A stretch of DNA of 64,000 nt from Dudresnaya verticillata. Lineage: Eukaryota. Both the position numbers and the translations under genes were made by a program. Shown piece after piece: positions 1 to 52,016 of the stretch; position 1 is the stretch's first letter; every line of letters starts with the position of its first letter. The stretch is from assembly GCA_977862235.1 (NCBI GenBank), contig OZ374559.1, forward strand, positions 2,356,001-2,420,000, in the 5' to 3' direction. Under the pieces are notes generated by a model that had not been told where the DNA came from, did not search any database, and saw only the letters and a list, made by a program, of their open reading frames with translations.

Positions 1-14
1 GCAGGAGCAGCAGG

Positions 15-10837: not shown

Positions 10838-11601
10838 TGTGGTGCAACGGCAAGGGGGCCGCCGAAAGGAAGCAAATCGACGGGCCAACTGTACGATCGG
10901 CCCAACCAAACGAAGACAGCTGGCCAATGAAGTCGCGCCGTCGGCGCGCGGACGGCGGTGAGCGCGCGCAGGTATGATACGTGGCCACCAGCTGTACACG
11001 TGGCTCACACGTGGCCACCTACGACACTGAAGCGCACCACGTGTCCTGCTGTACACGTATGATCCGGTTCTCGGTCAGACGCAAATGGAAATTGGATTTG
11101 GCCGCAAGGTGAATCAAAGGGAAGACAGTGGAAAAATCAAGGGAAAATCTAACTCATTTGGCCAACCACTAACGAACAAGTACTTGGTTTAGTCTGGTAA
11201 GGGTACAACATTGGCCCGACGCCGGAACACAAGTAGATATTTATGGCCGACCTGAGTAACCTAGGCCACTAACTGTAGAATAGCTCTAGATTAGCTCAGA
11301 TGGCCGATTTTGAGCCTACTTAGCTGGCCACACACTACGGCTAAGCCGAAAAAGGTACGAAGCCGTCCCGCCAGAGGTTGGGAGTACAGTTTTGCAACCT
11401 TTTCCCAACTTGGCCATTCTCCGTCCTCATCACGGATTCTGGCCACGACTTCGTCTGCGCGCTCCCGCTCTACCACGCTTGCTACCGGCGCGCAGGTCCG
11501 TTCTACGTTCTGGCCAGTTTTGGTTGAATCCGACAGGTCTTTGTGGTCTTCTTGGGGTCTCGTTGGGCTGCCGTACGCGGCGGTGCCTCAGAGATACTAC
11601 A
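10838..11601 (+). repeat. G1 5' LTR
   Basis: Direct repeat of 23394-24157; 2 mismatches seen. Confidence 0.97.
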
Positions 11602-11602
11602 C

Positions 11603-11615
11603 TGGTCTCCCGACC
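11603..11615 (+). promoter_or_regulatory. Primer-binding site TGGTCTCCCGACC (tRNA-Tyr-like, inferred)
   Basis: TGG 1 nt after the LTR; identical in G3. The complement ..GGGAGACCA resembles the yeast tRNA-Tyr 3' end. Confidence 0.8.
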
Positions 11616-12078
11616 TAGAAGATCAGTTGTGATTCCGGCCGTATTGCTCCGTTAGAAGACTCGAGTAGCTGGCCGTAGTCGACGACGGCCAGTTTCTTCC
11701 TCGCTACTGTGGTGGCCAAACCCCGCAAGTTGCAGATTGCGGGTTAGTAACTACCCGGTTCCGCAATCTGATTGTCAGTTTACTTCAACCCGTTTCTCTG
11801 GCCACAGTCTAGGTCACAGGCCAGATACCCGTCGCTTGGTTCGTTCCCAGGTTGGCTACTTTGCACACTCGCTGGTTCGTTCCCAGCACAGGGAGCTTTG
11901 CACACGGCAGTGTCCGGCCCTTGGTATAGGGACTATTAGCTCGGAATCGTCCGTTCCCACCCCTGTGTTTTGCACACGACAGTGTGGTTCCCAGGAAGGC
12001 CACTTTGCACACGTCGGCCACGGGGTGGCCACGAATCGCTAGAAGTATCTGGCCAATCAGTCTCCGACGTACTTCGTC

Positions 12079-14418
12079 ATGTCTTCTTCTTCTTCACAGG
12101 CAGGCGGACAACCGCAGTCCTTACAAGACTCGGCTCCGCCTCCCTCCACGTTGGGCGCTCCCATAGGCCCACCCCCTGCTCCTGGCCTGTATCCACCGTT
12201 ATCGGGGCCAACACCAGCTCCTCCGGTCCCGTTATCGACTGGCCAGTTCATTCCTCCGACAGTTGGACGAGCAGGCTCGGCTTCCACAGCAGGCGCCGTC
12301 CGTAATGAGGCACTGCCGCGGACAGCCCCACCGGTCTCGCCATGGCGCACGCCACCGGCGGCCACAGCGCCACCGATGACTCCGCTGGCCGCTCCTGCCA
12401 ATCTTCGGCCGCCTCCGGTTGACGATGATTCCCAGCCAGAACATGATGTCTGGTTGGGCCGGCAAGAGTTCTACCAGTATAAGCGTCGTACGGCCGATTG
12501 GCAACAAGAGGTGAAGAACCAGTTTGGCGAGATGCAAGTCAAAATGTCCACCACGGCTCTGATTAGGGACCAGCAGCTTCGCCAGGAGATACACTCCGTC
12601 ATCCTATACGGTGCACTTACGGCCATAGCAGAACGTTATGATGAGCGTCTGGAAAAGGTGGAGAAGGCCGTTTTCTCTTCCGACGGGAAGGGGAAACTCC
12701 CCGCTCCTCCTGGCCAGACAAGGTCCGAGTCCGCTCGGATAACACCGGCCAACCTACCAGTCTTGGCACCGCAGGTGGGTGAACCGGTAGCAGCAGTGCA
12801 GAAGCAACTGGATAAGTTGCAAGATGAGATAACGGCCTTGTCGCATCCTGACAAGGCTCGGCCCAATATTCCTGAAGAAGGGGTACCACCGCAAGAGGGC
12901 AACACTCAGAACAGTGGTGCCGCCCCACGGCCTGCTTTAGTTGGACCTTCGGGGCCAGTTGATGCAGGGGAACCTTCCATGGGATACACTGGCCAGTTGG
13001 ATGAAACAGGTCTTCCTGTCGCGATGATGGGGCCAATGGAACCAGGTCTAGAGCCTCTCAAGACCCTCCAAGAACCCTTCCGGCGGGTGGTCGACTACCG
13101 AACCCACCGCCTGTTCGATACTCGGCCAAAGATGACTATGGAGGATGCGCGGCGCTTGTCCCGGATGACTCGCCAAATCCGGAACTTGTTCCCGCAGATG
13201 AACCCATTTGATGGCCGACGTCCGATCGAGCTCCTGTCCTTCCTCAAGGAGTTCAAGGATGCGTGTGATGGGACAAACGTCCATGAAGGGGCCGCTTTGC
13301 GTCTTCTGGACTTCTTTACGGCCGGTAATGCGAAGAGGTTCTATTCTGGCCGGATGTCCCGTGGTATAAGGTCAGTACACTCCATCTTTCCGATGAGTGG
13401 ATTTTCACAAATCAGCTGGCCACACTTAGTCCACGCTCTCATCAAGCGCTACTGTACCGAAGATGTTCTGGCCGCTGCGTTCGACAAAGTGGCCAGGAGC
13501 AAACACAAAGATACAGAGAACGAAGCGGAATTCGCTGACCGGTTGGGGGATGCGGCGCTGTCGTGCGCCCATGTCTTCTCGGAGAACACCCTGATCAACC
13601 ATTATGTGAGCGGTTTACCTTCGACCACTCGTTCGGCCGTAGCTGAGAAGCTTATGCAGATGCGGCAGGAGGAGAAGGACTTCTCGACGGTGCGCCGAAT
13701 CGCCATCGCCGAGGGGGAGACACACAGAGCCTACTTGGCTTCTGCACGTCCCAAAACAAGGTCGGCCAGTTCTCGAAGTGCGTTGGTCATCCCTACCCTT
13801 GCGGCCGAACCTGCTTGGCAGGCGGAGCCCGAGGATATAGCGGCCAACTATGATGATCCGTTTGACACCATACCGGTTATGGCCATTACTTCTGGCCAGA
13901 ATGGTGCTCAGCAAACACCGACAATGACGCCGACCACGCCGTCACCGGCAGGGTCGGTGTCCGGGGGTAATACCCCGGACCCACTCCGGAAACCTCTGAC
14001 GTTAACGTCGGATGAGCTGGCCAAAGTCGCTATTATGCTACGCAGTGACAAAACCAGTGCCCGTTGTTGGGGTTGTCGCGAATGGGGCCATGATTTGTAC
14101 ACTTGTGTGTACCTACCATTGGCCATCAGGAACTTGTTTGCCATACGTAACTTCCGCTTCCGAGATGAATTCGCTAGATGGCACCCCGAACAGTTTGCTG
14201 GCCGAGGTGGTCGAGGTTATCGCCCCGACCAAAGGAATGCCTCCTTTGGGGATGGAAAGGGACGCCCTCCCCCTCAGGGAATACTCCGACGGCCACAACA
14301 ATCATCTTCGAACCGTAGGAATCGGCAGGCCACGTTAGTCACTACGCAAGAACATCCATTGGATGAGGTGGTGGCCGACGTGGAGTCCGATAATTCTTCG
14401 TTGGCATCGGGAAACTAG
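12079..14418 (+). CDS. gag: G1 Gag (779 aa)
   Basis: Follows the PBS; FDGRRPIELLSFL capsid-like region; zinc knuckle CWGCREWGHDLYTC. Confidence 0.88.
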   Translation: MSSSSSQAGGQPQSLQDSAPPPSTLGAPIGPPPAPGLYPPLSGPTPAPPVPLSTGQFIPPTVGRAGSASTAGAVRNEALPRTAPPVSPWRTPPAATAPPMTPLAAPANLRPPPVDDDSQPEHDVWLGRQEFYQYKRRTADWQQEVKNQFGEMQVKMSTTALIRDQQLRQEIHSVILYGALTAIAERYDERLEKVEKAVFSSDGKGKLPAPPGQTRSESARITPANLPVLAPQVGEPVAAVQKQLDKLQDEITALSHPDKARPNIPEEGVPPQEGNTQNSGAAPRPALVGPSGPVDAGEPSMGYTGQLDETGLPVAMMGPMEPGLEPLKTLQEPFRRVVDYRTHRLFDTRPKMTMEDARRLSRMTRQIRNLFPQMNPFDGRRPIELLSFLKEFKDACDGTNVHEGAALRLLDFFTAGNAKRFYSGRMSRGIRSVHSIFPMSGFSQISWPHLVHALIKRYCTEDVLAAAFDKVARSKHKDTENEAEFADRLGDAALSCAHVFSENTLINHYVSGLPSTTRSAVAEKLMQMRQEEKDFSTVRRIAIAEGETHRAYLASARPKTRSASSRSALVIPTLAAEPAWQAEPEDIAANYDDPFDTIPVMAITSGQNGAQQTPTMTPTTPSPAGSVSGGNTPDPLRKPLTLTSDELAKVAIMLRSDKTSARCWGCREWGHDLYTCVYLPLAIRNLFAIRNFRFRDEFARWHPEQFAGRGGRGYRPDQRNASFGDGKGRPPPQGILRRPQQSSSNRRNRQATLVTTQEHPLDEVVADVESDNSSLASGN
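14409..14415 (+). promoter_or_regulatory. -1 ribosomal frameshift slippery site G GGA AAC
   Basis: Directly before the gag TAG; the protease ORF is open in the -1 frame. The same heptamer occurs at 40496-40502 in G3. Confidence 0.75.
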
Positions 14419-17400
14419 CCGGGCCGAGATCTTCGATCGTGATCCCGTTGCCCGTACACGTCCCAAAACCGGCTAGTCTCGTTTCCATTAAGTTCTTCCC
14501 TTTTAGTCACCTCCATTTTTCTTCTTTGTTAGCCATTGCATGGCGTTTGGCAACGCCAATCCAGGTTTGGTCAACCGATGATTTGACCTACCACTGCCCA
14601 TTTTCATCTAACGGTCTGGTGTGGTCACCGCCCTTGAGGTCTGGCCATACTACATCATCACCCACCCCCATAGACAATGGGGGTTCCTTGCCAAAGAGTG
14701 GCCGCAAATCATCGAACGACGAACAGAAAGAAGAATCCCAACTGGCCAGTGTTTCATCACAAGGTATGGTCTGCATCCTGGGTGGGGCCAACTATACCCT
14801 TTCGGGTTCATTTGGCCTCACAATGACTGCCTTGTTACCCGGGCCAATTGTCTTAGACACGTGCTCGGGTTGGAACATCATCCGGTTGGATGCGTTGCCT
14901 CCCAATTGGAAGGACAACGCACTTGAGTTGACGTCCCCGCCTCTTCTGGGGGACGCCAACCAACGGCCAATTCAGTTTCTTGGGGCCGTTTCCTTGGTCG
15001 TGCGCTTGGGCCGTCATTCATATCGAGTGCCGTTCCTTATCGCCGACCTTCGCTTTGCAGTACCCGTTTTGTTGGGTACGGCATTCTTGAACACGCACGT
15101 GGATAGCATCCAGTGCCGTGGTCAAACCGTGCACTTAGTGCGCCGAGATATCCTTCCGCTGCTTCCTGATAGCACTTCGATGGCTCTGGGGGCAGAGCCA
15201 ACCGCTGCGAAGGGGGCCCCGCCTCCGGGTAATTCCAATCCGGCCAGTACGGAGCGCAAGACACAGCGACACTACGCGGCCACTGTACGCTTGACGAAAG
15301 GTCTAACCATACGGGCAGGCCAACAGGCCACCGTGTCTGTTCGCAGTGATGGCCGAGGATTATGTGTGTTGGAGCCCAAACATTCTTTGAGCTTCCGGCA
15401 CCATACGCGGATGGCCAATGGAGTTGCCGAGGTTCGGCCGCAGAAACCATTCCAGGTAATGCTGGCCAACTGGGGAAGAAAGGATGTCTTACTGCCAAAG
15501 GGTACCGTGGTCGGCTATGCTGTCCGCCACCCCATGGCAATCTTGACGCCACACCGACGGAGTGTGGAGAATATGGCCAGTGTACTTGGGCTGACTCCAC
15601 TTGTGGATCAGGATAGTAGTCAAGTAGAAGTAGAAGAATCTGGCCAAGAGAGAGTTGAGCCTTCGAAACCAAAGGTACCTAGACAAGAGGCACAAGAATG
15701 GCAGGATAAGATCAAGCTTGATCATATCCCGGACAAGAAACAACGCGAAAGGATAATGGCCATTCTAGAGAAACAGTGCAATGTGGGACGGTTCCCTGGG
15801 ACAGATCATGACCACCGAGCATCGGATAGACTTGGAAGATGGAACCCGGCCAATAAGAGCGATGCCCTACCGACAAGGGCCAGCGTTACGCGCGATCGCA
15901 GAGGCCGATATTAAGAAGCAGTTGGAGGCCGGAGTGATAGAGCCATCGCACGGAGAATGGGCCTCGCCAATTTTGATGGTGCCGAAGAAGGATGGCACCC
16001 TCCGCTTCTGTGTCGACTATCGCCGGCTCAATGCGAAGACAGTTTGTGACGCATACCCGCTCCCGCGCATGGACGATTGTATAGACTCCCTTGGGGATGC
16101 GGCCGTGTTTTCAACCTTGGACTGCAACTCCGGATATTGGCAAATACCAGTGGCCGAAGAGGACAAGGATAAGACGGCCTTCACCTCACACCTGGGGACA
16201 TTCAGGTACAATCGAATGCCGTTTGGCTTGAAGAACGCACCGGCCACATTTCAGCGTGCGCTTGACATAGTTCTCTCTGGCGTCCGATGGCAGATCTGCC
16301 TCATCTACCTGGACGATGTCATTGTGTTCTCCAAGAATGTGGAGGATCATCTTGGCCATCTAGACGAGGTACTAACCTTGTTGAAGGCGACCGGCATTGC
16401 GTTGAAGTTGAAGAAGTGTTCCTTCTTTCAGGCCAAAGTAGATTATTTGGGCCATGTAGTGACCCCCGGAAAACTAAGTATGGCCATGCAGGGTACCAAG
16501 GCAATACAAGAGGCCGAGTTTCCAGGGTCCCTTACGGAACTCCGGTCTTTCTTGGGAGCTTGCAATGTCTACCGAAGGTTTGTGGCCAAATAATCCATGA
16601 TCGCGAGGCCACTTACGCGCATGTTGTGCAAGGATGCCGAGCCAGACTTCGAACGGCCAACAGAGGAACAACGTCATAGCTTCGAGAAGCTGAAGGCTGC
16701 TCTCGTCTCGCCGCCGATTCTGGCCTTACCTAGATACGGCCGGCCATATGTGATCGAGACTGATGCCAGCGCATACCAGATTGGATGCGTCCTGCTCCAA
16801 GAACAAGAGGATGAGTCGTACCATCCCGTAGGATATTGGTCTCGTTCCCTGACGTCGGCCGAGAAAAACTATTCGGCCACTGAGCGCGAGTGTTTGTCTG
16901 TGGTGTGGGCCATTACATCATTACGGCCATATGTTGAAGGTACCAAGTTCACAGTCCGTACGGACCATGATGCCCTCCGCCGGTTGATGTCGCTCACTGA
17001 TTCATCTGGCCGTCTTACAAGATGGAGATTACGTCTGGCCGAGTTCGACTTTGTGATTGAGTATAAACCGGGGCGTAAGAACCAAGTTCCCGATGCCTTG
17101 TCCCGCTTGGTGGCCCCGCAAGAGCGCGGAGATGCACGGCCAATAGATGATACTGTACCTGTATTGGACGGTACCCCCTCTATTCTCACGACCACGCGGT
17201 CCCGGAGACATCGAGAAATTAATAAGGCCGACAGGAGAGAACGGGACAATGATGTCGACGCATGGAAGGAGGAACATTTGATGGCCGATTATACAGACTA
17301 TGGCCGAGCGGAAGTCTTCAGTCGTGCACAAATGGAAGGGAAGACAGCAGAGACTCTTCCAACACCAGTAACACAGACTGAAATAATAGAGGTCCAGAAA

Positions 17401-18846
17401 AGCGACGACTTCTGCCAGACCATTCTCGCCACGAGAGCTGGACTGGCACGATCCAAGAAGCCCCTCTTCTTCGAAGGGATTGAGGGAGTCCTCTATAGAC
17501 GATGTCCGACAGACGGCCGAAAACAAATAGTGCTTCCAGCTTCGTTGCATGGCCGGATTCTTCGGTTGTGCCATCATGCCGTTCTGGCAGGTCACCCTGG
17601 CCAGAATAGAATGTATCGGACCCTTCGACGGAGATACTATTGGCCGCACATGGCCGCTGATTGCTTAGCAACAGTTCGGAACTGTGGCCATTGCGAGAAG
17701 AACCGGATTCATCGCCTACGACATACATCGAAGTTACAGCTGTTCCCGGCCAGTCAACCATTAGAGAGTGTGGCCATGGATCTTCTCGGGCCACTCCCCA
17801 GGACGAAGAAGGGGTTCGAACACATATTAGTCATCACGTGCTGCTTCTCGAAGTTGACTCAGGTGGTGCCTCTGACGAAGATAACCGCCAATAATGTGGC
17901 CACGGCGTTCTGCGTTCACTGGATTTTCAAGTATGGCGCACCAAAGACAGTTCTCACTGATAACGGTGGGCAGTTTGCGGCCAAGTTTTTCCAGGCCGTC
18001 TGCCGACAATTACAGGTGGCCAACATCTTCACAACCACATACCACCCACAAACAAACGGCCAGGTGGAAAGGTACAATCGAACACTGGTCGCAATGCTGA
18101 GAAGCTACGTGAATGAACATCAGACCGACTGGGATGAATACGCTGCGGCATTGACGTATGCTTATAATTGCCATATACATCGCTCGACTGGAACCACGCC
18201 GTTTGACTTGGTTCTCAGTCGGCCGCCGAGCCCATTCTCACTTGAGGCTACGTTAAACCGGCCAAAGCCAACAGGGACTGTGAAGGAAGCGTTTTTGCGC
18301 CGATTGTCAGAGGCCGTGGATAAAGCTTCGGCCAGTTTAACTCGCACACAAGCGCGCTACAAGAAGGACTTTGACCGCTCGGTGAGAACGGGGAATAAGA
18401 TGCTGGCCGCTGGAGGGTTTGTCTTCTTAGACAATCCAGAAAAGCAGCCAAAGAAACTAGAGCATCATGCCCAGGGGCCATACAAAATTATAAGCAATGA
18501 CGGCCGTACGTTCGTCATCGACAGAGCTGGCCAACTAGAGCGTGTTAGCTCGGACCGAGTAGTAGCCGCACCCAGGCCACAGGGGCAACCGATGGCTAAG
18601 GAGACAATGGCCAGCGCCGCATTGGGAACCCTTCCGGAAGGAGTCGCTGCGTCGGCCGAGGAGTATGTCATTGACAAGCTCACGGACATGCGTGAGGATT
18701 CAACTGGCCAGCGGTGGTTTCAGGTCAAGTGGTATGGGTATAATGGCCGAACGTGGGAACCCGAGGCTCTTTTGCCGGCCACGTTGGTGTCTCGCTTCTT
18801 CGCGCGCATGAAGCGCCGAGCTACGCCGGGCCAAAATAGTTCGTAA
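14415..18846 (+). pseudogene. pol: G1 Pol (PR-RT-RH-IN-chromodomain), with a frameshift ~15775 and TAA at 16591
   Basis: LDTCSG protease, YLDD, ETDASAY, HHCC zinc finger, TDNG..NGQVER integrase, VKWYGY..TWEP chromodomain. Confidence 0.95.
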
Positions 18847-19767
18847 GTTCAACATCGAAATGGCCAGGGAAGTCAAGCGAGAAGAGTCAGAGTCTGGCCA
18901 AAAACTTGTGAAGACGGAGATGCGTGGTGATTGTAGATGGGGGGGAGAGAAGGAGATGCTGGGTGACAAAATACCCCGGCTGGAACCCCACCACCAAAAA
19001 CACGACGGCGGTGTTTAGGGTTAACCCAGAATAATGTAAGCTGGCCAATCATGTGTGAGAAAGTTGTGGCCAGCAAATCTCCCGGTGCACGCCAAAATTC
19101 AGTGGGTGTAAATGGACGGTAGAAACTACCTCATCTTTTGCTACCTTTTTCGGGCAACTCTAATTCCCACATATCGTGCTCCCAAGCGGGGGGCTTGCGC
19201 AGAGTGAGGGGACAGGGGAAGCGACGATAACCCCTACCGACAACAAGAAGAAAATTGGCCCAGAGAAGAAGACATGGCCAGATGAGAAGCTTGAGGCTGA
19301 TGAGACGAAGACAATAGCTGGCCATTGCTCTTCCTACTGCGCCTTGAAGAAGGTAGCCTCACACCAAGACCATTCCACCACCACTCGCACTGGCCATTTT
19401 TGTGCTTTGACTTAACCACTAACTCCCTTGACCCCGTTTTTCCAGCTGTGCTCATGAGCATTGGCCAGGAGCAAGACTTACGACCCGAACTAACAAAGGT
19501 CCTACAGCCCCATTGACTAACAACTGGTCATGATAACACACAAAGTTTTTGAAGGTAACCAGTGCACTTTAACTCAAGACTGGCCGGACAGACTCATTAA
19601 CTCCCAAGAACAAGGGGAGCTGTCCAACCTTAAGACGCACTAACTTGGCCACCAACTTTTGATAACGCAAACACAAGACATAGGAAATCACAAGACTAAC
19701 AACAACTCATTGGCCAGCATAAGAGCACAAGACGAGCTGGCCAACTACTAACCCAAGACCTTGACAA

Positions 19768-22700
19768 CTAACGGCCATAGGGACTTGGCGAGCGAGGAGA
19801 ACCCGAAGCATAGGGCTCCCTGCTCCTCGACTGCGAAGGCGCACGAGGCGCTGTCGCGGGAACACGAGGGGCCGCCGCAGGAACGGTTGGCGGCGTCACA
19901 AAAGGCGAAGTGGCCGGCAGAGATAAGCTTCCAGGAACCTGGCCAGGCTGAGCAAAATTGGCCACAGGAGTCGGCGGAGCCGACACAGTCGGACGAGTTG
20001 GCTCTGGTTGATAATCGGCCGGTCGAGACGGCGCACGTGGATGACTGCTGATATCTCCAGCGTGAGATGGCGTGGGGGTTGTGGCCAGTGCCACTGAGAC
20101 CCCAGGATATGGCGGCATGCCCGGCGCAGGCGTAGGCAAGGAAGACAGAGGAAACTGAGGCATCTGGCCAAAGACGGAGGGCGCATAAGCTGCGCGCAAA
20201 CTGGCCAGCTGATGAAATCCACGATTGCGCTCCATGTCAAGTAAGGCCTGTTGATTGTGCGTCTCATCGCACCAGCGATCGCGCTGTCTCTTCCACTCAA
20301 GACCCTGCTCGTTAGATCTGGCCAACGTCTCCTTTGTGGCCTGCAACTCGGCCTCGACTTGGTCTTTCTACCTTCTAACATTGGCCAGCCGCTCTTGGCC
20401 CCGCCTGATCACTTCTTCCATTTCATCAACATGACGACGAACGCGGTTGAGCTCTTCGGACTGGCCACGCTTCATATCGCTGAGACGGCCAAGGCTCTGA
20501 TCCAGCTGCCGCAAGACGTTGGCCAAAGACATTTGGTTAACATGGCCACGTACAGAGAGTTCGGCCACCACATGCGGATGAGGATGTAAGATAGCGGGCC
20601 GCACGATGGAAGCGTCGTTGGCCACATCAACTCCAAAGCTGCTACCATGGCGAAAAGTCACTTGCTTGTTCCAGTCGAAACCGCAATACTTCTCATCATG
20701 GCCCGCTCGACGTTGGAACAAATGGTCGCGTTGTAGCACTGTATCGGCCAGCTTCTCGTACAACGATACAACATCTGGCCAATATACGTGGTTGAACTGA
20801 TGCTGGTGCTCCGGGCTGACGGGAAGATAAGTAAGGCCTTTCACCACTTCAATCCGCCGAGCAATGGCCTGCGGAGTCATCCACCACATTCTCTTCGACG
20901 CTTGCGCTTCGTAGCGGAAGAAGATGCTGGCCATTATGTGCAACTCTATGACAGCGGTCTCTTGGAAGCACTCAACCCAAGAGGGGTCGAGCGCATGACG
21001 ACGATACTGGCCAACAAAATAATAAGCCAGTGGGCTGAGCAGACAAGCTTCACCCTTCGATGGCCACTCCTTCCAAAGAAAAGCGGGGACGCTAGGGAAG
21101 TATTCAACTGATGGCCAAAACCCTTCCTGGCCACGAGTGTTGCCATGGTAGACATAGCTACCACCCGTGCGATGGGCCAGTCAATCTCCCGGTGCTATGA
21201 TGCGACGAAGGTCGGTACTGGCCATTTTCGCGTTTCGCACGGTTGTCTGCTCCCAGCGCTCAAGCATCCACGCGTGAGGGAAGGCGTAATACCAGGTGGA
21301 AGTGTGAGGATACACGCTAGACTTGCCCTTGAACATCAGCCAAGCCCCGTGGACGAACATCACGTCCTGCGCGCACAACAAAAAGGCACGATCGCACTCA
21401 ATCTCCAGAGGGATCCAATAGAGATGGCCATTATCGTGCGACTCGCGATACTGATGCCACACCTCGTTGAGAGGGCAATGGCTTTCCCGCACGCGAATCA
21501 TGTCCAGCTTGTCACTATTGGCCACCAACTCGGTATAAGGAATATCTACCCGAGGAAGCTTTGGCCAGATGGAAGTCCCAGGAAGTCGTTCGTCCAAAAC
21601 TAACTCAGGGCCATCATGATCTTCTAGCCCCGGTGGGACGTCAGCACGGAAAGGTACAGCAGCACGAGTGTGCGAAGCTGGTTCACAGTCCCGATGCATC
21701 GGAGCAGAAGGGCCAGCACTTGAACTTGGAATACCCTGGCCAGTCTTCGTGATATCTAAGGTTTCTTCGCGCGGAGTAACTTCCTTAGCGCGGGGATCTT
21801 CAACCTGGCCAGATGACTTGGGCTGCACGCCTACAGAAGGCGTAGAAGAAGTCTGGCCAGTTTTAAGCTCATCGGCGTCGGGGAGCAAGGCCACAAAGCG
21901 ACGACGATCGCCGTCTGACATAAGATTGGCCGGCGGGATTGGTGTAGAAGCATCGACGTCAATAACTTCCTCACGAGATGACTGGCCAGCTTCCTTAGGC
22001 GGCAGCCGCTGCTTCTTCGAGGGAGGTCCCTGAATAACGGGCTTACCGATGTTTAACTTGGCCAGTTCACGCGAACGACTCGCAGCCGTCGGCATGAAAG
22101 GCGAAGGCGCCGAGCGTAGTCGCGGCGTGGATTTCCTCGAAGCGCTTGGAGTGGCCGAACGCGACGATTTGCGTGGCACAGGAATGTTGGCCAAAGCTTC
22201 TGCAGCCTTCTGCCCCAACTTGTCTCCTTTCTTCTGTTCTGGCCCAACCTTCTCAACACTTCCAGGTAACTCCTGCTTGCTGGCCAATACTTCTTCTCGA
22301 GCGGGCACAAATACCATGGCCGAGTCGACGACCTCGGGTTGAACCGCAGCTACTTCTTCAGCTGCTGCTGTAGTAGCTTTAGTAACCAAAGGACGATAGA
22401 TGGCAATAACAGCCTTCTCAATGGCACTGGCCAATGGAGGTGGAGTAGGATTAATGGCCGTTGGCACCGAAGTGCTTGCGGCCGGCACTGACTTCTTCGC
22501 TTCGAGACGCTTCACCTCGGCCTGTACCAACCCTTTCTCAGGCGCTTCTGCTGTCTTCTGGCCAGTTTTCTTCGTCTCCTGGGCTAGCGGGCCGACGGTA
22601 GAAGATGCTGTCGGCTTACCCTTTTTGAGTTGACCTGTTGCCACCGCTGCCTCTTCTGATGAAGATGATGCAACGATGGTCACACTGCACACCACCTTGG

Positions 22701-23160
22701 CCTTCTGCGCATCCGCAAGTTTCTTCTTCAAACTGGCCAGTTGTTGTTCCTCAGCTTCGCGTCTCTTCTGACTGGCCTCTATCTCCTTCATCAACTTGTC
22801 GGTGCCAACGTCGGGCGTACCTTGCACCATGGCCGGAGTTGCGGAAGCAGCAACACTCTTCTTCTGGCCAGTTGTGATGGGCTTCTCCACCGCGGCCACC
22901 TTCGCGGCAACCAACGGATCATTAGTTGCACGGCTTGGAGTCTTGGGCGCCGGGGCGGAAGATGCCCTGGGCGCCTTCATCGCACGCGGCCTCGAACTCT
23001 GGCCGGTCTTCTTGGTGGTCGCCTTCGCTTTGGCCGTCACAACTTCTTCATCGCTTGACGGCGGCGTAGAAGATGAGCTTGAAGAAATGGTCGGCCGTAC
23101 AGTCTTCTTCTTGACCGATGCAGTGCGGCGCGGACGCGCTTTCGTAGGGCCACCCGCCAT
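19768..23160 (-). pseudogene. G1 antisense accessory ORF, ~1130 codons, with two in-frame stops (21181, 20368)
   Basis: ORFs 21181-23160, 20368-20943 and 19768-20346 are one frame when TGA and TAG are read through (checked by hand). Layout: K/S/A/P-rich N-terminus, W/Y-rich domain, coiled coil, P-rich tail. Confidence 0.8.
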
Positions 23161-23393
23161 CAAGAGCGAACTGGCCAGACACGCAAGTCGGGAGTAAGGG
23201 AAGGCGCGCGCAAGTTGGCAAGAAGCGCGGGCGTGTGCACGATATGTTGGGAAGTGTTGGTAAGGGGAAGCGCGATGCGGGTTGAAATGGGGATGGCCGG
23301 ATGCAGGGAGAGGGGTGTCGGCGCGGATCACGCGCGCTGATATGGCCAGATGAAACCCTCGCGGCCAGGAGTCCGCGCTTGCGAAGGGGGCTC

Positions 23394-24157
23394 TGTGGTG
23401 CAACGGCAAGGGGGCCGCCGAAAGGAAGCAAATCGACGGGCCAACTGTACGATCGGCCCAACCAAACGAAGACAGCTGGCCAATGAAGTCGCGCCGTCGG
23501 CGCGCGGACGGCGGTGAGCGCGCGCAGGTATGATACGTGGCCACCAGCTGTACACGTGGCTCACACGTGGCCACCTACGACACTGAAGCGCACCACGTGT
23601 CCTGCTGTACACGTATGATCCGGTTCTCGGTCAGACGCAAATGGAAATTGGATTTGGCCGCAAGGTGAATCAAAGGGAAGACAGTGGAAAAATCAAGGGA
23701 AAATCTAACTCATTTGGCCAACCACTAACGAACAAGTACTTGGTTTAGTCTGGTAAGGGTACAACATTGGCCCGACGCCGGAACACAAGTAGATATTTAT
23801 GGCCGACCTGAGTAACCTCGGCCACTAACTGTAGAATAGCTCTAGATTAGCTCAGATGGCCGATTTTGAGCCTACTTAGCTGGCCACACACTACGGCTAA
23901 GCCGAAAAAGGTACGAAGCCGTCCCGCCAGAGGTTGGGAGTACAGTTTTGCAACCTTTTCCCAACTTGGCCATTCTCCGTCCTCATCACGGATTCTGGCC
24001 ACGACTTCGTCTGCGCGCTCCCGCTCTACCACGCTTGCTACCGGCGCGCAGGTCCGTTCTACTTTCTGGCCAGTTTTGGTTGAATCCGACAGGTCTTTGT
24101 GGTCTTCTTGGGGTCTCGTTGGGCTGCCGTACGCGGCGGTGCCTCAGAGATACTACA
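23394..24157 (+). repeat. G1 3' LTR (PPT GAAGGGGG just upstream)
   Basis: Direct repeat of 10838-11601. Confidence 0.97.
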
Positions 24158-32637: not shown

Positions 32638-33230
32638 TGTGACAAGTGGGCACGTCCGTGTCCGAAACAGTCTCGCGTACGCGAAGACGAAAAGATAAAG
32701 TGAAGGATAGAGGCGGAAAGAGGAAGGCGAGTAGATGGGTATGCCGCGCTGGTCGGGTCCGATGCAGTGGTTGCATGCCCTCGCCGTCGTTCGACACCAG
32801 CGGGTTGCCTTTATTGATACTACAGCTGGACAGCTCTGTGCGACCCACAGTAAATGTGACTTGCGTACGCAAGCTCCGTTCCGAACAGCCATGGACGAGT
32901 GCCGCCACCGGCACCAGCCATCCCGACGTCGCCGGTGATGGACAGAAAGTCGCCCAGGTCCTCGCCTTAGTCGTAGGACCTGGCAGCAGGCCAATCATGT
33001 AGAAGGCATGGCAGCCCGGCGCATGTGCGCTGGGTCTGCATTGTGAGCGTACGCTACAGTAGAGCGCATCTCTCGGAGCATCAGAACGGCGAGTCGGCTG
33101 AGTACTCAGCAGGCGTCCGTACTCTGTACAGAGCTCACCTCACGACGCCACAGCGGGTCGGGCGTTGTGCACAGGCGTCGGGGCTATTAGCCTGCGGGCG
33201 CTTCCTCGTGTTGAGCGCCCAGGGGTTACA
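32638..33230 (-). repeat. G2 3' LTR
   Basis: Direct repeat of 51420-52012; ~13 mismatches by eye. Confidence 0.95.
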
Positions 33231-33268
33231 GTGCCCCAGAGCTCCTGTACAGGAGTAACAGTGAGCTT

Positions 33269-36200
33269 TCATTCGAAGTTACACTGGGCGAGTGCCTCAA
33301 GCTTAAGCTTGCGGGACCCCGCGGTCTGCAGGAAGTCTTGAACTAGTCCTGGCATATCTTCTAACGCTTGTTGAAGAGGTTCCCAGGTCCTGTCGACTTC
33401 GTCCGGCAGTCCTGCCCATTAGATTTGGATCTGGAGTACTCCATGAGCCTTACGAATGTTGTGTAGTATCTCCGAGATTTGGTAGTTGGTGTCGGAGTGC
33501 TCTGCAGCCTTCAACAGCGCAGGAAGTACTTCCTTACCTTCCATGTCCACGCGGTAGAGAAGTAGGCGACGAGCATGTACGACATCTCGTTTGTCTGTGA
33601 GGAGGTTCTGTGCCTCGTACACCCAGTTCGAACGGATATCCGTGACTCGACGAGGTCCTCGCCATACGAATCGAAGCTTGTGTCCACGAGCTTGAGCGCG
33701 GCGCACAAGGAAGAAGTCGCCCTTGACAAAATTGACGTCACGCACGTTCGTGCGTTTGTTGTGACGATCAACCTGACGTTTGCGCGCTGCCGTTGAGCTT
33801 TCGCTAGCCTCTCGGTGCATGCTGTACAGCACGTCCTGGATCTGATCAACGTTCAGCAAGGCACGTACGCGAACTTCGTCATCAGTCTTGGCCAGACGGT
33901 ATTTGGTCATTGGTAGCGCTCGTAGCAAAGGACGCACCGGACGGTGCCCCGTGAAAAACTCCAGTGGAGTACGGTGTACACCGACGATATCCGCGTTTCG
34001 TCGACCTAGCCTTCGAAGCGGCGTTTGGTTGATAATGCTCTGCACAGACTCGGTAACAGCCGGCCAGTCTTGCGGAGACAGTTGCCACTCGCTCAACAGG
34101 GCTCGGCATGCCCGAAGTACTTCGCGGCAAACTCTCTCAACGGAACCATTGGCCCAAGGAGAGTATGCAGTAGTGAAGTGATGCTGCGTACGCAGATCTT
34201 TAACCATCTCGTGCAGTAGCACATTCTTGAAATGGGATCCCTGGTCGCTAACCAACCACTCCATCGATCCAAAGCTGCCGACCCATGTACATAGGGCGTC
34301 AGCTGCAGTTTCGGCGGACGCCTCTTCTGTCGGCCAGAGCTAAATGTAGGTGGAGAGGTCATCTCTTATGATGAGGATGTACTTCTTGCCGTCAAAGCCC
34401 TGGCCCATGTAGAGGAAGTCAATGTGGAAAACCTCGTTAGGGCGTTCGCCATGTAACGCGTGTCCAAGCGGTCGTGGTACTATCTCACCCGTACGGGTTA
34501 TGATACAGTGTAAACATCCTCGTACGAGCTCTTCGACGTCCGCGGTGATGTTTTTCCACCAAAATCTCTCAAGGATGATGCTCTTGGTAGCGTCCGCTCC
34601 ACGATGACCAATTGATCCCCAGTGCGAACACACCATCCCCTTGAGCTTGAGCTCCAGGTCTTCCTTTGGGATCCAGATCTGGTATCCCTTCTTCCAAAGT
34701 CCATCATCTTTGTCGAGGAGTACTCCTTCGCAACGATCGTGCTTCGCTTGCGAGGCACGAATGACTTCGATATCTGGCCAGATGATTGAATCAGCAGCAG
34801 GTACAAGCTGTTCAGCTTCTTGCAGTAAGACGCTGCACAGCATCGAGTTCTCGTTGCGGTATCCTCTAACCCATCGGGTGAGGATGTCAGCGAAGATGTT
34901 TTCTTCTCCCTTGACGTGCTCGATGATATAATTGAACTTGGACAAGTACAATGCCCATCGTTGGACCTTAGAAACGATATGGCGACCAAGTGCTGGTTCC
35001 AGCGCGAGCGGTGCAAATACGAACAGCAAATTGCGATGGTCCGTAAACACTCGAGTACTCGCGTGGCCTAACAGCATGTAGTCGAGTTTCTAGAACGTCT
35101 GGAATACGGCGAAGCCTTCCTTCTCAAATGTAGACCAATTACGCGATGCGCCGGTAAACTGGGAACCCAGAAAAGCGAGCGGCTCGTGCTTTTGCTCTGC
35201 AACTGGCTTACTCAGTTCGGACTCGCAGCACTGCGTGACCACGCCAGACCAGAAACGGTCCGACGCATCAGTGAATATGCAGATAGCTTTGTCCGGTACC
35301 GGATAAGAAAGTGTTACTGCGGTTTGTAGGCTGTCTTGTAGATCTTGAAAAGCGTTTTCATGCATGGGTCCCCATGACAGGCTACGGAGCGTGATCTTGC
35401 GGATAGACTTCTTCGTCCGCTTGCCAGATTGGGCGTATGCCGCTTCCAGTAGGTCGTTCAAGGGCGCGATGCGCCGGGCGAAGTCGGGGATGGAAAGAGC
35501 CATCCACCGACAACAATAGATGAACTGCGCCAGTTCGTCAGCAGTTTTGGGGTTCCCCATATTCTGCAGGCCGGAAAGGCACGTAGGGTCGAGCTTGTAG
35601 CCGTCTGCAGACACGATACGTCCGCACCATCGCAGTTCCGTACGTAACAGCTGGCACTTTCGTGCAGAAATCCACAACCCTTTCGCTTGGCAGATGCGCA
35701 GAAATTCTTCAAGCCTGTCCAGAAGAATATCCTCGTTAATTGCATGAAGGCTGAGGTCGTCCAGCCATGCCTTGAGAGAATCTCGAAGGCTCGCAAAAAG
35801 CGGCTCGACTGAGCTCTGAAAAAACGCCACGGCGTTCGCCAGGCCCTGCAGGACACGTTTCGAAATAACAACACAACGTGGTGTAATTACACCGCACGCA
35901 GTGTAGGAATCTGGATGCAGTGGAAGCTGCCAATATCCAGACACGAAATCCAGCCAGGCAAAACATTTGCTTCCACAGAAATCATACACCTCACTGTCCA
36001 GATGAGGCATTGGCCACGATTCCTTGATCGTGGCGCTGTTGACCGGGCGGAGATCCACGGTCATACGATATGCAGCCCGAGATCCGGGTTTTGGGACCAG
36101 TAGCGGTGCCGCTTGCCATTCAGCTGTTGGCATGTCCTCAAAAAATCCCATATCCTTCAGCTTGTCCACGTACGTGTTCAGAAAGCTCCGTTGTTCACCG

Positions 36201-36984
36201 GAGTATCTCCTTGCCTTGACACGTATCGGACGATACCCGTGCTTGAGGCGTATCCTCATTGGCGAGACGTCGGCTGGTGGGGATTTGCCCGGCCGAATCC
36301 GAAAACCGGGTGGCGGTCGAGAATTCCAGTCAGCCGTACGGCTCCTGCCTCGCTCAATCCATTGCGGCGAGCGTCATCGACCAAGTCAGCGAGCGCCTTC
36401 TTCAAGTCGCCAGGTGAGTCCTCGCCGAGGTCAACGTAAACGTTACTGTCTTCGAGTAGATCTTCTTCAGCACCGCCCTCACTGTGAAAGGTAGTTCCGA
36501 AGTCCAAAGCGCGTTCGCGTAGGATTTCTTGAATAGAATGGTCGGTATCGGCACAAGGCGTATCATCCCGTCCGTCATTCTGAAGTACTTCAGGAATGTG
36601 AACAACTCCTCCGAACCTGTCTGCCGCGACTTCTAGCAGAATACGGTTGTTCAACCCAAGAGACGCAAGCACATGTCGTCCGACATAAACGTGCTGTACC
36701 TCCTCATCAGCGACTAGCCAATTCATCCCACGAAGCATTAGATTGGTACCATGCCGGATGCGAAGTAGAACATCAGCGCACACTTCCTTACTGCACTCGA
36801 TTTTCTGTACAGAAGACTTTGCGTTAGAGAACTCCAGCCTCTTGGGAAGCGTGGACACGCGAATACTTGAATCGGCATCCTGAATTGACTTCAGTACTGA
36901 AGGAGAGATCAAGCTGACGTCAGATCCTTGGTCTGCTAGCACGGAAACCTCCACAGCGCCTGAGCAGAACGATGCGGAGAACAT
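33269..36984 (-). pseudogene. pol: G2 Pol (PR-RT-RH-IN-chromodomain), multiple stops and frameshifts
   Basis: LADQGSD, YRMTVDLR, LDFVSGYWQ, WLDD, FTDASD, TDHRNL, SDQGSHF, NGSVER, WAGL..TWEP. Confidence 0.93.
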
Positions 36985-37356
36985 AGATGTGTGGTCACCC
37001 TGTACAGGTTTCGCAACTGACCCAACATTTCCTTTCTTCTCAGTACCCGTACGGGCCTTTTTGCGAGCGAAGTATTCATCTCTAAGACGTTTCTTGTCCT
37101 CTTCCGAGCTTTTTGTACAGTCCCGTAGCCAGTGGAACTCATTACAGTCCGGGTTCAGGCATGGCGGCGTGTCGCCTCCGCGCTTACCCTTTCCATCGAA
37201 TTGCCGGACGGCTTTTCGTTACGTCCAACAAGAGTATCAGCAGTACTGCCCGAGCCGTCCTTGCCGCGTTTACCCTTATTACGGCCGCGCCCCAAGTTAC
37301 TCTGACGGGTACCCGTAGAAGCAGTAGGCGGAGGATCATCTCGGACGAGCTTTGCA
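36985..37356 (-). pseudogene. gag: G2 Gag, C-terminal part
   Basis: Continues the gag beyond the G3 insertion; zinc-knuckle-like CLNPDCNEFHWLRDC. Confidence 0.7.
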
Positions 37357-37361
37357 GTCCT

Positions 37362-38147
37362 TGTAGTATAGCTGTCAGCACACTATCAGCAGCGGCTGTA
37401 AGGTATGCTGGCAGCGCCGCACTGTAATGGTGCACACGATGACGCCCGCTGGCGAGTCGTGGTTGGGCAGCGTGCCCTTAGTTTTTTCGTTGAATTAGTA
37501 GCGGTCGACCGCATTGCTGCCGGCAGCGGCCGCGCGCCGTGCCGCACACGGCGCGCCCCTGTTATCACACCTGTGACGCTCTCCGGCATCGAGCCGTTGA
37601 GAGGGCCGCTGCCCGTTACGCCCCGCGCGCGCCCACGGGTAACCGTTACCCGGACGTATCGACACGTGTATGGGCGCGCGCTCGCACACCTCCCGCATTG
37701 GTGTTGTGGGGCGCACCTACTGTAGAAGTAGTCGTAGTGCACATAGTGTAGGGTATTTAAGACCGTCGGCCATCGACGGCTCAGTAAACCGGGCAAGCAA
37801 AAGCTCGCGCTGAAGCTTGCCCCCAGCCTTTTCGGGTTCGATCCCTTTGCCTTACGCCAGCGGGCGGTTTCCCTTTTTCCCCTTGCCTCGCTAGGCTTTC
37901 CCCTTTCCTTTTCCTTTCCGTCGGCTTCGTGCCGCCCTTCGACAGGGACGCTAGGATCCGGCCGCTGCCTACCCGCGTACGCTACGCCCCGTGCACGCTC
38001 CAGCATCGACACCGTTGATCCGCACCTGCGAGGCGCACGCGGCCGACACCGCTCTACCAACCCCAACAGCTACCCATCGACGGGTCTGTGTGGCGGCTTC
38101 GGACCAGCAAGTATCAGACGTCGGATCGACCCGACGTCTATACTACA
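37362..38147 (+). repeat. G3 5' LTR
   Basis: Direct repeat of 49843-50628; ~21 mismatches by eye. Confidence 0.96.
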
Positions 38148-38148
38148 C

Positions 38149-38161
38149 TGGTCTCCCGACC
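38149..38161 (+). promoter_or_regulatory. G3 primer-binding site
   Basis: TGGTCTCCCGACC, identical to G1. Confidence 0.8.
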
Positions 38162-38214
38162 TAGAAGTCGTCGAGACTCAAGTACTTCTCGCATCGACGC
38201 GATCGCAGTAAAGG

Positions 38215-40502
38215 ATGTCGAGGCCTCCTGACCCGGCCGCTGCCGCATCGGCTGCTGCCGGAAAAGTTGAGGACGCGACGCGTCGCACCTCAATACTGAG
38301 TACCATCGACGTCTCAGGTACTCCTCTACACGATGTGAGGCTCGAGCGGAGGGCCGCGCTGCAAAAGGCCCTCGCCGGGAGTCTGGTCTCGGTGGCCGAC
38401 CTCCAGTTGATGTATGAGGAGACCATGGACTCGCTAGCCGAGGTGTACGACCACCTTACAGCTTCGATAGCTGAGGCGAAGGCCGACGGCCAGCAAGACC
38501 TGGACACGCTTCGACGCGGTCCTTTGGCGTCCATCGAGGACGGAATAACCCGGTCACAGGGGCTCCTCGATGAGCTACGCCGCCGCGTTGAGTTGATAGA
38601 GCGCGCGCCGACGCGGCAACGCCAGCGGGCTACGGGCCCGTCGTCAGCGCAGCGCTCTCCTCCGCGACCGCAGTCACCAGCGGGTGCAGTTCAAGAACTG
38701 GCCGCTGCCATACTTGCCGAGCAACGAGCTCGGCATCTCTTTCCTTCACCACCGCCATCTCCACCGAGGAGTGCGGCGGGGTCGCACCATCCGAGTGGGG
38801 ACCCCAATCCGTTCTACGGGGTCGACCCCAGGTTGCTCCAACAAGCCCTCGACGGGCAAAACACAAAGGGGAGACCGACCCCCCAACAGCACGAGGGCCC
38901 CGTCTCTGCCTATTGGCATTGGGGCCCACTCATGGCAGGCATCGAGCCTTTAACCACGTTGGTGCCAGAGTTCGCTAAGGCGATCGACTACCGTTCGTAC
39001 CGTCTCGATGACGGCGATCAGCGGGACAATCAACAGCAGGTATGCAGCGGCAATACTGCGAAGATTGTCAGCCGCATGAAGGCCCTGATGCCCCGACTCG
39101 ACCGGTTCGACGGCAAGGAGCCTATTCGCCTGCTTGGTGTGCTTCGACAGCTACGCCAAGCATTCAATGGCGTTGGACTATCTGAAGGCACAGCGGCGCG
39201 TGTGGTGTCCTGGTTCCTCGATTGAACCGCGTCGCAGGTGTACTCGAGTCACCTGTTCTCTGGGGTGCGCACGACGCAGCGCGGCACCCCACCCTGCTGG
39301 GCCTCGGTGGTCAATACCCTCTTCGAGAGGTTCGTCACGGACGACGTCATCGCAGACGCCCATGACCGGCTGACCACCGCCAAGCAGAGGGACGCCGAGT
39401 CCGAGCTTGAGTTCGCTACTCGCCTCGAAGGGTATGCGGACGCCTGCGCTGGCGTGTAATCCGATGAGAACTTGACGCATCAGTTCCTTCGGGGCCTGCT
39501 GCCCACGACAAGACCCGCAGTGGCGGAGAAGGTCAGGCAGCTGCCTATGGTCGAACAGACCAATTTTAGTACCGTTCGTCGGATTGCCCATAGCGAGGGC
39601 ACAACCTACCGCGCCCGTTCGGCAAAGGCAGCGCAGCCTACGAACACCTCAGGGCGCGGCAGGTCAGGTGGCAGCTCGGCAAGCGGCCGTACACTGCTCA
39701 TCGAGGGCCCACCAAGCTATCCCAGTGGGGACGTTGCTATCGACAGCACAATGCTGGTGGACCCTGACGCCGACGGGTTCGAACCCGTGATGGTCGCGCC
39801 CGCGCTATCGACAGCCGGGTCGACCGAGGCCGTCGAGACCCTCGACATTACAGGACGCATCGACGCGGTCCTACCCAAGCGCATACCACCGCTCACTCCA
39901 ACGCAGGAGGCGATGGCACGCGCAGTCATCCCTGATCGACAGGGATGGTACATCTGCTGGTTCTACCGCGAGGTCGGGCACATCATGTATTCGTGCCCGT
40001 ACCTCACGAAGGAACAGCAGACGTACTGCGCGTATGCGAACTGCAACCATCGAATGGAAACGCAGCCGCATTCGCGCAATATGCTCCAACAGCTCATCGA
40101 CGAGCGCGCGCCAGCGGGCGAAAGGACAAGGAACCCCGCACGGCGCTACGACGCGCCGCGGGTGGGGACCGACGCTTCGACGCGAGAGGTCCCCCGCAGC
40201 GCATGGGCGCACCAAGGTACCGCGGAGAGCCGCAGGGGTACCGCGGGGATCGTCGAGACCCACACCGCGAGTACCGCCAAGGCGACGCACCGCGGTTCCT
40301 GCTGCGCGATAAGCGGGTCGGCTTCGACGAGCCCGCTGGCCGTCAACCTCAGGCATCGACGCCTCCGAGGGCTGACCCGCGTCGCGAACTGCTCCGAGAA
40401 GTTATGACGGTGCAGGAGCACACAGGCCTCACCGCCGACGAGTGGCTTCCGCAAGTGCTCGACGCGCGGCACAAGGGAGAGACAGCCAGCGGGCAGGGAA
40501 AC
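38215..40502 (+). pseudogene. gag: G3 Gag with stops and a frameshift
   Basis: GIEPLTTL..IDYRSYRL..FDGKEPI..FSTVRRIA..CWFYREVGHIMYSC aligns with G1 Gag; ends at GGGAAAC. Confidence 0.85.
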
Positions 40503-40653
40503 GATTCCCCTCTCCTTTTGACACGCCTCCGCGATCGACGCGAGGCGCCTCAGGGGTTACGAAACACCCAATCGGAATCGAGCAAGAAAGTTCGGATTCC
40601 GAGGATAATTCTGACCGGGTCGATCCGGAAAAAGAATAAAGGCGGCGCCGCTC

Positions 40654-50628: not shown

Positions 50629-50633
50629 GTCCT

Positions 50634-51368: not shown

Positions 51369-51419
51369 GATTCTGTATCTTCCACAGACGCACTATTTCC
51401 TCCCGGGAAAAGCAATTTC

Positions 51420-52012: not shown

Positions 52013-52016
52013 GTAC

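Follow-up and report, generated by a model that had tools for sequence, protein, structure and literature searches.

Short words repeated genome-wide are known from bacteria, for example the DNA uptake sequences of Neisseria and Pasteurellaceae. The HIP palindromes of cyanobacteria are described as iterated, with lineage-specific alternatives and a cognate methylase (PMC4390886, PMC5861425), and a repair model exists for HIP1 (PMC4390886). The VANDAL elements of Arabidopsis are Mutator-like DNA transposons with 8-9-nt non-palindromic motifs that are bound by VANC anti-silencing proteins; these motifs share one orientation and are found for the most part in tandem repeats outside coding sequence (PMC5735166). 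In RNA viruses, stem-loops with a shared motif dispersed along the genome are an established packaging mechanism, and packaging-signal-mediated assembly is described for MS2, the pgRNA of HBV and picornaviruses (PMC6281560). Our literature search, with most subscription papers and supplements outside its coverage, returned no report of element-wide marks in LTR retrotransposons.

The window analysed here comprises 64,000 nt of Dudresnaya verticillata DNA. It contains an element, G1, with the following parts:

10838..24157, plus strand: G1, Ty3/gypsy LTR retrotransposon (250 GGCC, 92 TGGCCA)
10838..11601, plus strand: 5' LTR (TG...CA), 764 bp, 16 GGCC
11603..11619, plus strand: primer-binding site, begins TGG
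12079..14418, plus strand: gag with one CCHC knuckle, 40 GGCC
14394..18846, plus strand: pol (protease-like, RT, RNase H, integrase, weak chromodomain), 82 GGCC
18847..19767, no strand: non-coding spacer, 13 GGCC, 11 of the 13 as full TGGCCA (counted to 19747)
19768..23160, minus strand: antisense accessory ORF, 1,130 codons, 68 GGCC, 32 TGGCCA
23394..24157, plus strand: 3' LTR, 16 GGCC

The LTR pair, the target-site duplication, the primer-binding site and the domain order identify G1 as a Ty3/gypsy element. It is inserted in a DIRS-like repeat unit with a 5-bp target duplication, and its two LTRs show 2 differences. Pfam matches were RVT_1, RT_RNaseH, Integrase_H2C2 and rve, which place RT, RNase H and integrase in this order downstream of gag and protease; the CCHC knuckle of gag and the protease motif were identified from the translation only, gag having no Pfam match. 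The integrase C-terminus matches the chromodomain PF00385 at E=3e-4 and 21 bits, under the 25.1 cut-off, and PF00385 is present in many close relatives. The 3' end of gag overlaps a GGGAAAC heptamer, where pol starts in the -1 frame. Pol itself is disrupted twice: its frame changes near 15770, and a stop lies near 16592. An Rfam scan of 10500-52500 gave no match. A sequencing-run lookup for 19000-24157 listed none, which says nothing on expression.

TGGCCA occurs at 6.9 per kb in G1 against 0.37 per kb in the rest of the window, where 19 copies are spread over 50.7 kb; the DIRS-like repeats and the host-gene region carry no such mark. The earlier note had described G1 as saturated with a TGGCC(A) motif, and our recount reproduced all of its figures: 16 GGCC (12 TGGCC) in each 764-bp LTR with 4.4 expected from base composition, 8 GGCC in 20401-20705, 1 in each 593-bp LTR of the neighbouring element G2 and 4 in 1.2 kb of flanking unit. 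LTRs, UTRs, gag, pol and the antisense ORF are enriched alike, as had been stated, with 14-25 GGCC per kb in 12 of 12 parts and a drop to background at both LTR ends; a mark (TGGCCA or the GGCC core) is found about once per 50 bases along the 13-kb element. Counted with one LTR (12,556 nt), G1 contains 234 GGCC and 84 TGGCCA, compared with 73 and 4.6 under an order-1 Markov model and with 141.5 GGCC expected from its own trinucleotides. The excess also survives synonymous-codon shuffling of four ORF blocks (8,811 nt, 500 shuffles), with 168 GGCC against 84 ± 6 (shuffle maximum 107) and 52 TGGCCA against 10 ± 3 (shuffle maximum 21). These controls rule out a codon or composition artefact. Tandem repeats are likewise ruled out as the origin, as only 1 of 13 TRF rows, a two-copy 21-mer, falls in G1. 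CpG decay of CGGCCG would leave the GGCC core unexplained, and CpG is only mildly depleted (0.91). Target-site preference was rejected as a source of the marks, since the duplication of G2 alone matches its own word and those of G1 and G3 do not.

The mark governs codon choice in G1 and alters amino acids, motif-compatible residue runs being twice those of 40 relatives. The claim that it shapes the proteins holds for the antisense ORF (GQ 15 against 2.7, LA 15 against 8.2, WP 4 against 1.7) and for pol, but in gag the effect is weak (14 against 8.1) and lies inside the shuffle maximum of 17. Rare residues at TGGCCA codons were counted in 10 of 22 cases in variable columns and in 0 of 5 in conserved columns.

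Refined, the motif reads TGGCCA, a palindrome whose GGCC core does not vary; each of the 12 possible single changes to GGCC occurs at background level (0-6 against 2-5 expected). CGGCC and GGGCC are the second-best forms, mainly within coding DNA. The flanks are A+T-rich out to 7 nt per side (0.53-0.57 against 0.478). Sites avoid close neighbours: 9 pairs lie no more than 15 nt apart, with 47 expected, and in a second comparison close pairs numbered 8 against 37.9, with a minimum of 19 over 2,000 random fills. Coding opportunities were used in 2 of 39 cases at a spacing of 5-9 nt, in 12 of 55 at 10-15 nt and in 51 of 89 at 16-25 nt. Helical phasing of 10.5 bp was not detected, and neither arm covariation at any offset, centred or off-centre, nor extra pairing between neighbouring sites was found, which rules out a stem-loop reading of the G1 motif. 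Folding z-scores are similar on both strands (-0.87/-0.75 in G1, -1.43/-1.24 in G3). In non-coding DNA the motif is strand-symmetric (TGGCC 33, GGCCA 32), and over the whole element TGGCCG and CGGCCA number 32 and 31. This symmetry and the missing hairpin arms speak against reading on RNA, and a symmetric motif is the trace expected from a dimer that binds double-stranded DNA.

Each LTR family in the window has its own, different mark. The neighbours of G1 are:

32638..52012, minus strand: G2, distant LTR element with 593-bp LTRs and a target duplication of 4 bp (GTAC), split by the G3 insertion
37362..50625, plus strand: G3, gypsy element from the same clade as G1, with LTRs of 783 bp, inserted within G2
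47630-49483: antisense ORF of G3

In G2, 30 of the 48 GTAC words are centres of perfect 10-14-nt palindromes with variable arms. G3 has GGCC at background level and instead carries AGCG-loop hairpins with 4-bp stems (42 sense, 13 antisense) as well as TCGA-loop hairpins. The arms covary in both (z 5-8 at positions 1-4 in G2, z 5-7.5 for AGCG in G3); being variable but complementary, they would be readable only in a folded single strand. Stems end at ~4 bp whether or not the DNA is coding, and hairpins inside ORFs far exceed codon shuffles (18 against 0.27 in G2, 8 against 0.13 in pol of G3, 6 against 0.26 in its antisense ORF). Other non-palindromic loops share the sense-strand bias of AGCG (ATCGAC 12 against 3, GAAC 6 against 1; TCGC 13 against 3 in the relative L002), and in G3 the bias follows the sense strand of the element even within its antisense ORF. 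Near-perfect G3 hairpins show no G-U excess (3 G-T and 4 A-C of 24), and G-T exceeds A-C in only 19 of 30 sequences. G1 and G3 belong to one well-supported clade (100/99, 18 rows), with 70% RT identity and 20 identical nucleotides at the primer-binding site.

G1 was analysed as one copy, and specificity to its family was judged by comparison with the rest of the window and with retrieved relatives. GGCC/TGGCCA saturation is absent from all of the best 80 of at least 400 confirmed metagenome loci (RT identity 55-65%). A clear loop word was seen in 4 of 29 representative relatives and TGGCCA in 0 of 29; the motif is enriched in G1 and rare in the other families of the window and in these 29 loci. 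Hairpin density is limited to the region between the LTRs in the relatives L034, L039 and L006, and in one related clade perfect stems are generically 3-7-fold more frequent than expected. Viral contigs yielded one distant RT (L001). The single match of a primer-site pattern scan, L082, was a chance match and unrelated.

The Ty3/gypsy elements Grande of maize and Boty of Botrytis (brtn) also have an antisense ORF that separates pol from the 3' LTR, with the extra gene in the same position and orientation as in G1; the G1 protein is much longer and has no Zn-cluster or Pfam family. Its ORF is interrupted by stops near 21182 and near 20369, and the protein consists of a disordered N-terminus, a globular part of ~270 aa, a coiled coil and a Pro-rich tail. 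Pfam returned coiled-coil noise only, without a DNA-binding or methylase domain. The AlphaFold models are of low confidence (pLDDT 39 and 44), and Foldseek gave no match at E<=0.001 with a model too low-confidence to be informative. Three weak, unnamed homologues were found; a profile search gave no matches, and the Atlas lookup for the homologue P0137 was blank. Between G1 and G3, BLAST aligns the antisense proteins collinearly over ~200 aa at E=0.054, a pair that a four-sequence HMM missed. The earlier note had suggested the antisense protein as a possible reader of the mark. This idea is not supported: G2 is marked yet has no antisense gene, and thus an accessory protein is not required for a family mark, and neither a DNA-binding or methylase domain nor a fold match was found.

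We tentatively propose that the marks are a selected, element-wide self-recognition code that acts at the RNA or particle stage through Gag or the sister genome. A self-recognition code had been suggested before, together with a VANC-style antisense reader. The reader part lacks support; the code itself is supported by the confinement of the mark to the element, by its persistence under the Markov and codon-shuffle controls that the note had named, by its cost in codons and residues and by the different marks of the neighbours. We infer that selection rather than mutation underlies the marks, that linear and hairpin marks have a common function and that single-stranded RNA is the target. A family's own Gag or a sister genome copy would read the mark on RNA, and the family could thereby package and pair its own RNA despite the crowd of other retroelements in the genome. 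The self-complementary hexamer of G1 may act as a short helix or a pairing site, and sites closer than ~16 nt would be selected against, either by trapping in cis or because they share one protein footprint. As G1 and G3 share a clade and a primer site, a common reader is parsimonious. Reading on RNA is favoured by the fixed stem length that is kept in ORFs and by the sense-biased loops of G3 and L002. The marks of G2, G3 and L002 closely fit viral packaging signals (PMC6281560), as dispersed word-bearing motifs that overlap coding sequence and whose spacing matters. Shared-loop stem-loops are found in G2 and G3 but not in G1, whose mark is linear and strand-symmetric; a sense bias, as expected for signals on a packaged strand, is seen in G3 and L002 and not in G1, and a clear G-U excess is lacking. 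Binding of Gag or capsid to the marks is putative and drawn by analogy.

The main rival, which we regard as possible but rather unlikely, is that an element-encoded homodimer, either the antisense protein or integrase, coats double-stranded DNA at TGGCCA with a 16-18-bp footprint and protects it from silencing, as VANC does, or from self-integration of the cDNA. It keeps this rank because the two-fold symmetry and the 16-nt exclusion of G1 fit a DNA-binding dimer. The invariant core, the symmetric A+T-rich flanks of 7 nt each, which agree with the exclusion zone, and the large antisense ORF with its globular part and coiled coil also suit it, and hairpins are not required in G1. However, it does not account for the hairpins that mark G2, G3 and L002, and G2 lacks an accessory gene. 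Searches of the antisense protein found neither a DNA-binding domain nor such a fold, and homology between the antisense proteins of G1 and G3 is no more than putative. VANDAL elements (PMC5735166) resemble G1 in a dense short motif that is rare in related families, in differences between related families and in an accessory gene. The likeness drawn in the earlier note breaks down on layout: the G1 mark is a 6-nt palindrome generated by point change, dispersed across all ORFs and mostly coding, with a minimum spacing and neither tandem arrays nor concentration at a promoter. VANC-like binding in G1 is putative, by analogy. If DNA coating were true, G1 would be a retrotransposon with a system like that of VANC, and its protein would found a new family.

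Quite improbable in our view is a mutational or repair drive without benefit, in which methylation-directed repair or deamination writes TGGCCA in a HIP1-like manner and RT, by switching templates at fold-backs, perfects the short palindromes of the other families. An even density that ignores gene boundaries, residue changes confined to variable columns, strict Watson-Crick arms without G-U excess and the generic stem excess in one related clade would all be in line with it. But mutation acting site by site would not avoid close pairs, stems keep to ~4 bp even where the DNA does not code, words differ among elements of one genome with DIRS-like repeats and the host-gene region free of any such mark, and the few LTR-pair differences show no motif-linked hypermutation. 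HIP and uptake sequences share with G1 a short palindrome that is many-fold over-represented inside and between ORFs, with alternatives by lineage; they are distributed genome-wide in bacteria, whereas the far denser G1 mark is confined to one mobile element of a eukaryotic genome. In the G1 ORFs, which the search covered, no methylase was found. Recruitment of a host transcription, chromatin or RNA-binding factor, a different one per family, that would promote expression of the element or shield it is the least likely reading: it needs no element-encoded reader, so that G2 fits, and the G1 spacing is footprint-like, but TGGCCA is at background in the nearby host-gene region (2 in 5.7 kb) and the word differs between the close G1 and G3, for which co-evolution with an element protein is easier.

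How families sort their RNA, escape parasitism and diverge while sharing a nucleus is a question whose answer has mostly been looked for in one packaging element at the 5' end. Marks that recur at intervals of 50-120 nt in all genes, differ per family and bend codons and residues offer a direct handle on it. With the words known, Gag, integrase and the accessory protein are open to immediate binding tests, and the marks could serve to sort fragments into families. Under the self-recognition code that we tentatively favour, we speculate that a lineage writes a barcode through its whole sequence, genes included, which takes the form of either a linear palindrome or a hairpin with a 4-bp stem and a private loop, and that Gag or the sister RNA co-evolves as reader. 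Such a fast-diverging self/non-self system might keep families from cross-packaging and recombining and would amount to a reproductive-isolation code for retroelements.

The saturation of G1 with the palindrome TGGCCA and its core GGCC is real, strong and broader than first reported. G1 carries 250 GGCC and 92 TGGCCA (6.9/kb), compared with 19 TGGCCA (0.37/kb) in the remaining 50.7 kb of the window. GGCC density is 14–25/kb in 12 of 12 parts of the element, so the claimed spread across all compartments holds, and the enrichment stops at the LTR edges. On recount every GGCC and TGGCC count of the earlier note proved correct, and the enrichment persisted in both controls which that note had named. 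An order-1 Markov model predicts 73 GGCC and 4.6 TGGCCA where 234 and 84 were counted; synonymous shuffles of the ORFs gave 84 ± 6 GGCC and 10 ± 3 TGGCCA, and the observed 168 and 52 exceeded 500 of 500 shuffles. These results describe one copy per LTR family in one 64-kb window, which is composed as follows.

10838–24157, plus strand: G1, a Ty3/gypsy LTR retrotransposon with LTR pair, target duplication and primer site
32638–52012, minus strand: G2, an LTR element distant from G1, without antisense gene
37362–50625, plus strand: G3, an LTR element nested within G2, with its own antisense ORF
3353–10837, 24158–25119 and 52013–64000: several DIRS-like elements that have RT, tyrosine recombinase and split repeats but neither word nor hairpin mark
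27181–28089, minus strand: WD40 host gene fragments, located in the sole non-repeat stretch, with background motif density
1–3352: GC-rich fragment showing a mild hairpin excess; its two long ORFs, both on the minus strand, have no Pfam match

The G1 LTRs (764 bp each, TG...CA ends) differ from each other at 2 sites and are flanked by a 5-bp target duplication; the primer site begins with TGG. Gag has a single CCHC knuckle, and pol lies in the −1 frame with RT, RNase H and integrase matched by Pfam and a chromodomain match below the Pfam cut-off. Pol and the antisense ORF of 1,130 codons contain a few breaks. The heptamer GGGAAAC (14410–14418) directly precedes the gag stop, where the −1-frame pol begins, and fits the pattern of a programmed −1 frameshift site. 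The insertion sites of G1 and G2 are both copies of the DIRS-like repeat unit. G3 RT is 70% identical to that of G1, both elements fall in one clade (support 100/99), and they have a common primer site; the shared 20-nt stretch (11602–11621 and 38145–38164) appears to resemble the 3′ end of a tRNA-Tyr. The proteins closest to G1 are metagenome sequences (RT up to 75%), and the host is possibly a red alga.

Codon choice in G1 tracks the motif, as seen from the dependence on the neighboring base: Ala is GCC in 100/147 cases after G (36/187 otherwise), Gly is GGC in 56/87 cases before C (19/116 otherwise) and Pro is CCA in 24/34 cases after GG (59/259 otherwise). TGGCCA occupies 52 of 76 places permitted by the residues, compared with 7/20 in G3 and 3/13 in G2. 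The proposal that the motif also shapes the proteins stood for pol and the antisense ORF, while in gag the effect falls inside shuffle noise. G1 pol has 22.4 TGGCCA-permitting residue runs per 1,000 aa versus 11.0 ± 2.4 (maximum 17.5) in 40 polyproteins, those of 120 fetched that passed length and identity filters, and the excess goes the same way against every one of the 19 sequences translated for comparison, 18 from fetched loci plus G3. In the antisense ORF there are 39 such runs versus 12 in shuffles (maximum 24), and GQ occurs 15 times versus 2.7. Residues rare in relatives stand at 10/22 TGGCCA codons in variable columns of pol (93/554 elsewhere) and at 0/5 in conserved columns; bare GGCC codons of pol show no such excess (13/102 versus 101/817).

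An exclusion zone, two-fold symmetry, an invariant core and A+T-rich flanks are new properties of the G1 mark. Gaps of ≤15 nt occur 9 times versus 47 expected; in coding DNA there are 8 versus 37.9 (minimum 19) in 2,000 random placements of equally many sites over the allowed positions. In G3 and 13 of 14 related loci, close GGCC pairs are as frequent as in random placement or more so; L020 has 6 versus 8.9. TGGCC and GGCCA are balanced in non-coding G1 DNA (33 and 32), the flanks of the core tolerate change, and A+T-rich sequence lies at 3–7 nt on both sides. G1 sites have no hairpin arms, centered or offset, no added complementarity between neighbors and no location in tandem repeats. GGCC–GGCC distances in 10838–23393 show a weak 4.75-nt period (P 0.002–0.004 against gap-permutation and jitter nulls), which is the best in both halves; the absolute-position spectrum is not significant.

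The neighboring LTR families carry different, hairpin-type marks of their own. GTAC is enriched 3-fold in G2 and TCGA 2.75-fold in G3, where CAGCGG is enriched also; no word of comparable enrichment was found in the DIRS-like and host regions. In G2, 30 of 48 GTAC are flanked by perfect 3–5-bp arms of variable sequence (perfect palindromes, 10–14 nt). GAAC-, GGAC- and GTCC-loop hairpins also occur in G2, and its 4-bp target duplication is GTAC too. G3 has AGCG-loop hairpins with 4-bp stems, 42 on the sense and 13 on the other strand, most of the form NN-GCAGCGGC-N'N', besides TCGA-centered loops with 4-bp stems. G3 hairpins use codons unusual for this GC-rich element, conserved RT motifs included (e.g. 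42511). The hairpins hold up in ORFs against codon shuffles: 18 versus 0.27 in G2, 8 versus 0.13 in G3 pol and 6 versus 0.26 in the G3 antisense ORF. Stems extend past 4 bp at about chance rate, non-coding DNA included, and spacing follows no rule beyond hairpin size.

Among 29 representative relatives, drawn from the best 80 of 400 confirmed loci, none has the TGGCCA mark and four have a clear loop word: TCGC in L002, CTAG/CAAG in L008 and L048, and AGTGG in L017. TCGC hairpins of L002 (1–2850) are sense-biased (13 versus 3), with 7 in the RT ORF versus 0.06 after codon shuffles; the loop words of L017 and L009 do not hold up in ORFs under such shuffles. One related gypsy clade (L006, L008, L009, L025, L026, L034, L037, L039, L048, L051, L073) has a generic 3–7-fold excess of perfect 5-bp stems with recurrent CTAG and CAAG loops, limited to between the LTRs where flanking sequence exists. 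L007 and L063 lack a perfect-stem excess.

Arms that vary in sequence yet stay complementary, and the preference for the sense strand, suggest a folded single strand as the putative readout molecule, in the simplest case the element's genomic RNA. Together with the G1/G3 clade they lead us to favor, tentatively, a self-recognition code, for which Gag or sister RNA would be candidate readers. The earlier note had suggested such a code with the antisense protein as possible reader; as a necessary reader this protein drops out, because G2 is marked without an antisense gene and the mark thus does not generally require an accessory protein. The G1 antisense protein has three weak homologs (best E 8.5e-10), no family by Pfam or profile search, no usable structure model and no fold match. 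It matched the G3 antisense protein weakly in BLAST (E=0.054, collinear over about 200 aa), and a four-sequence HMM did not recover that match. At 46518–47629 the G3 antisense gene closes with a tandemly duplicated stretch of 98 bp and a tail rich in Pro and Gln, which echoes the coiled-coil-plus-tail layout of the G1 protein, its homolog P0137 and a further compared protein, P0139.

Coating of element DNA by a putative element-encoded protein is rather unlikely but remains a close rival, since the G1 mark resembles a dsDNA dimer site and RNA-specific pairing tests were flat. Quite improbable is a mutational drive that writes the marks: it matches the even spread of sites but accounts neither for the exclusion zone nor for stems of fixed length and words private to each family. 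Reading by a host protein is more doubtful still.

According to PMC5735166, VANDAL motifs are family-specific and dense like the G1 mark, but mainly non-coding, co-oriented and built via tandem repeats. G1 may work like VANDAL motifs, yet it is not a member of that system. As described in PMC6281560, dispersed packaging signals of RNA viruses match the layout of G2 and G3 and not that of G1. HIP1 (PMC4390886 and PMC5861425) shares palindromy and coding overlap with G1 but is genome-wide. A preprint from 2026 (10.64898/2026.08.24.746577), which deals with transposase-derived regulators, concerns DNA transposons. Element-wide family marks in LTR retrotransposons were not found described in the literature covered, which was incomplete. 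By analogy, the G1-type mark may be akin to known self-recognition systems, with a putative reader.
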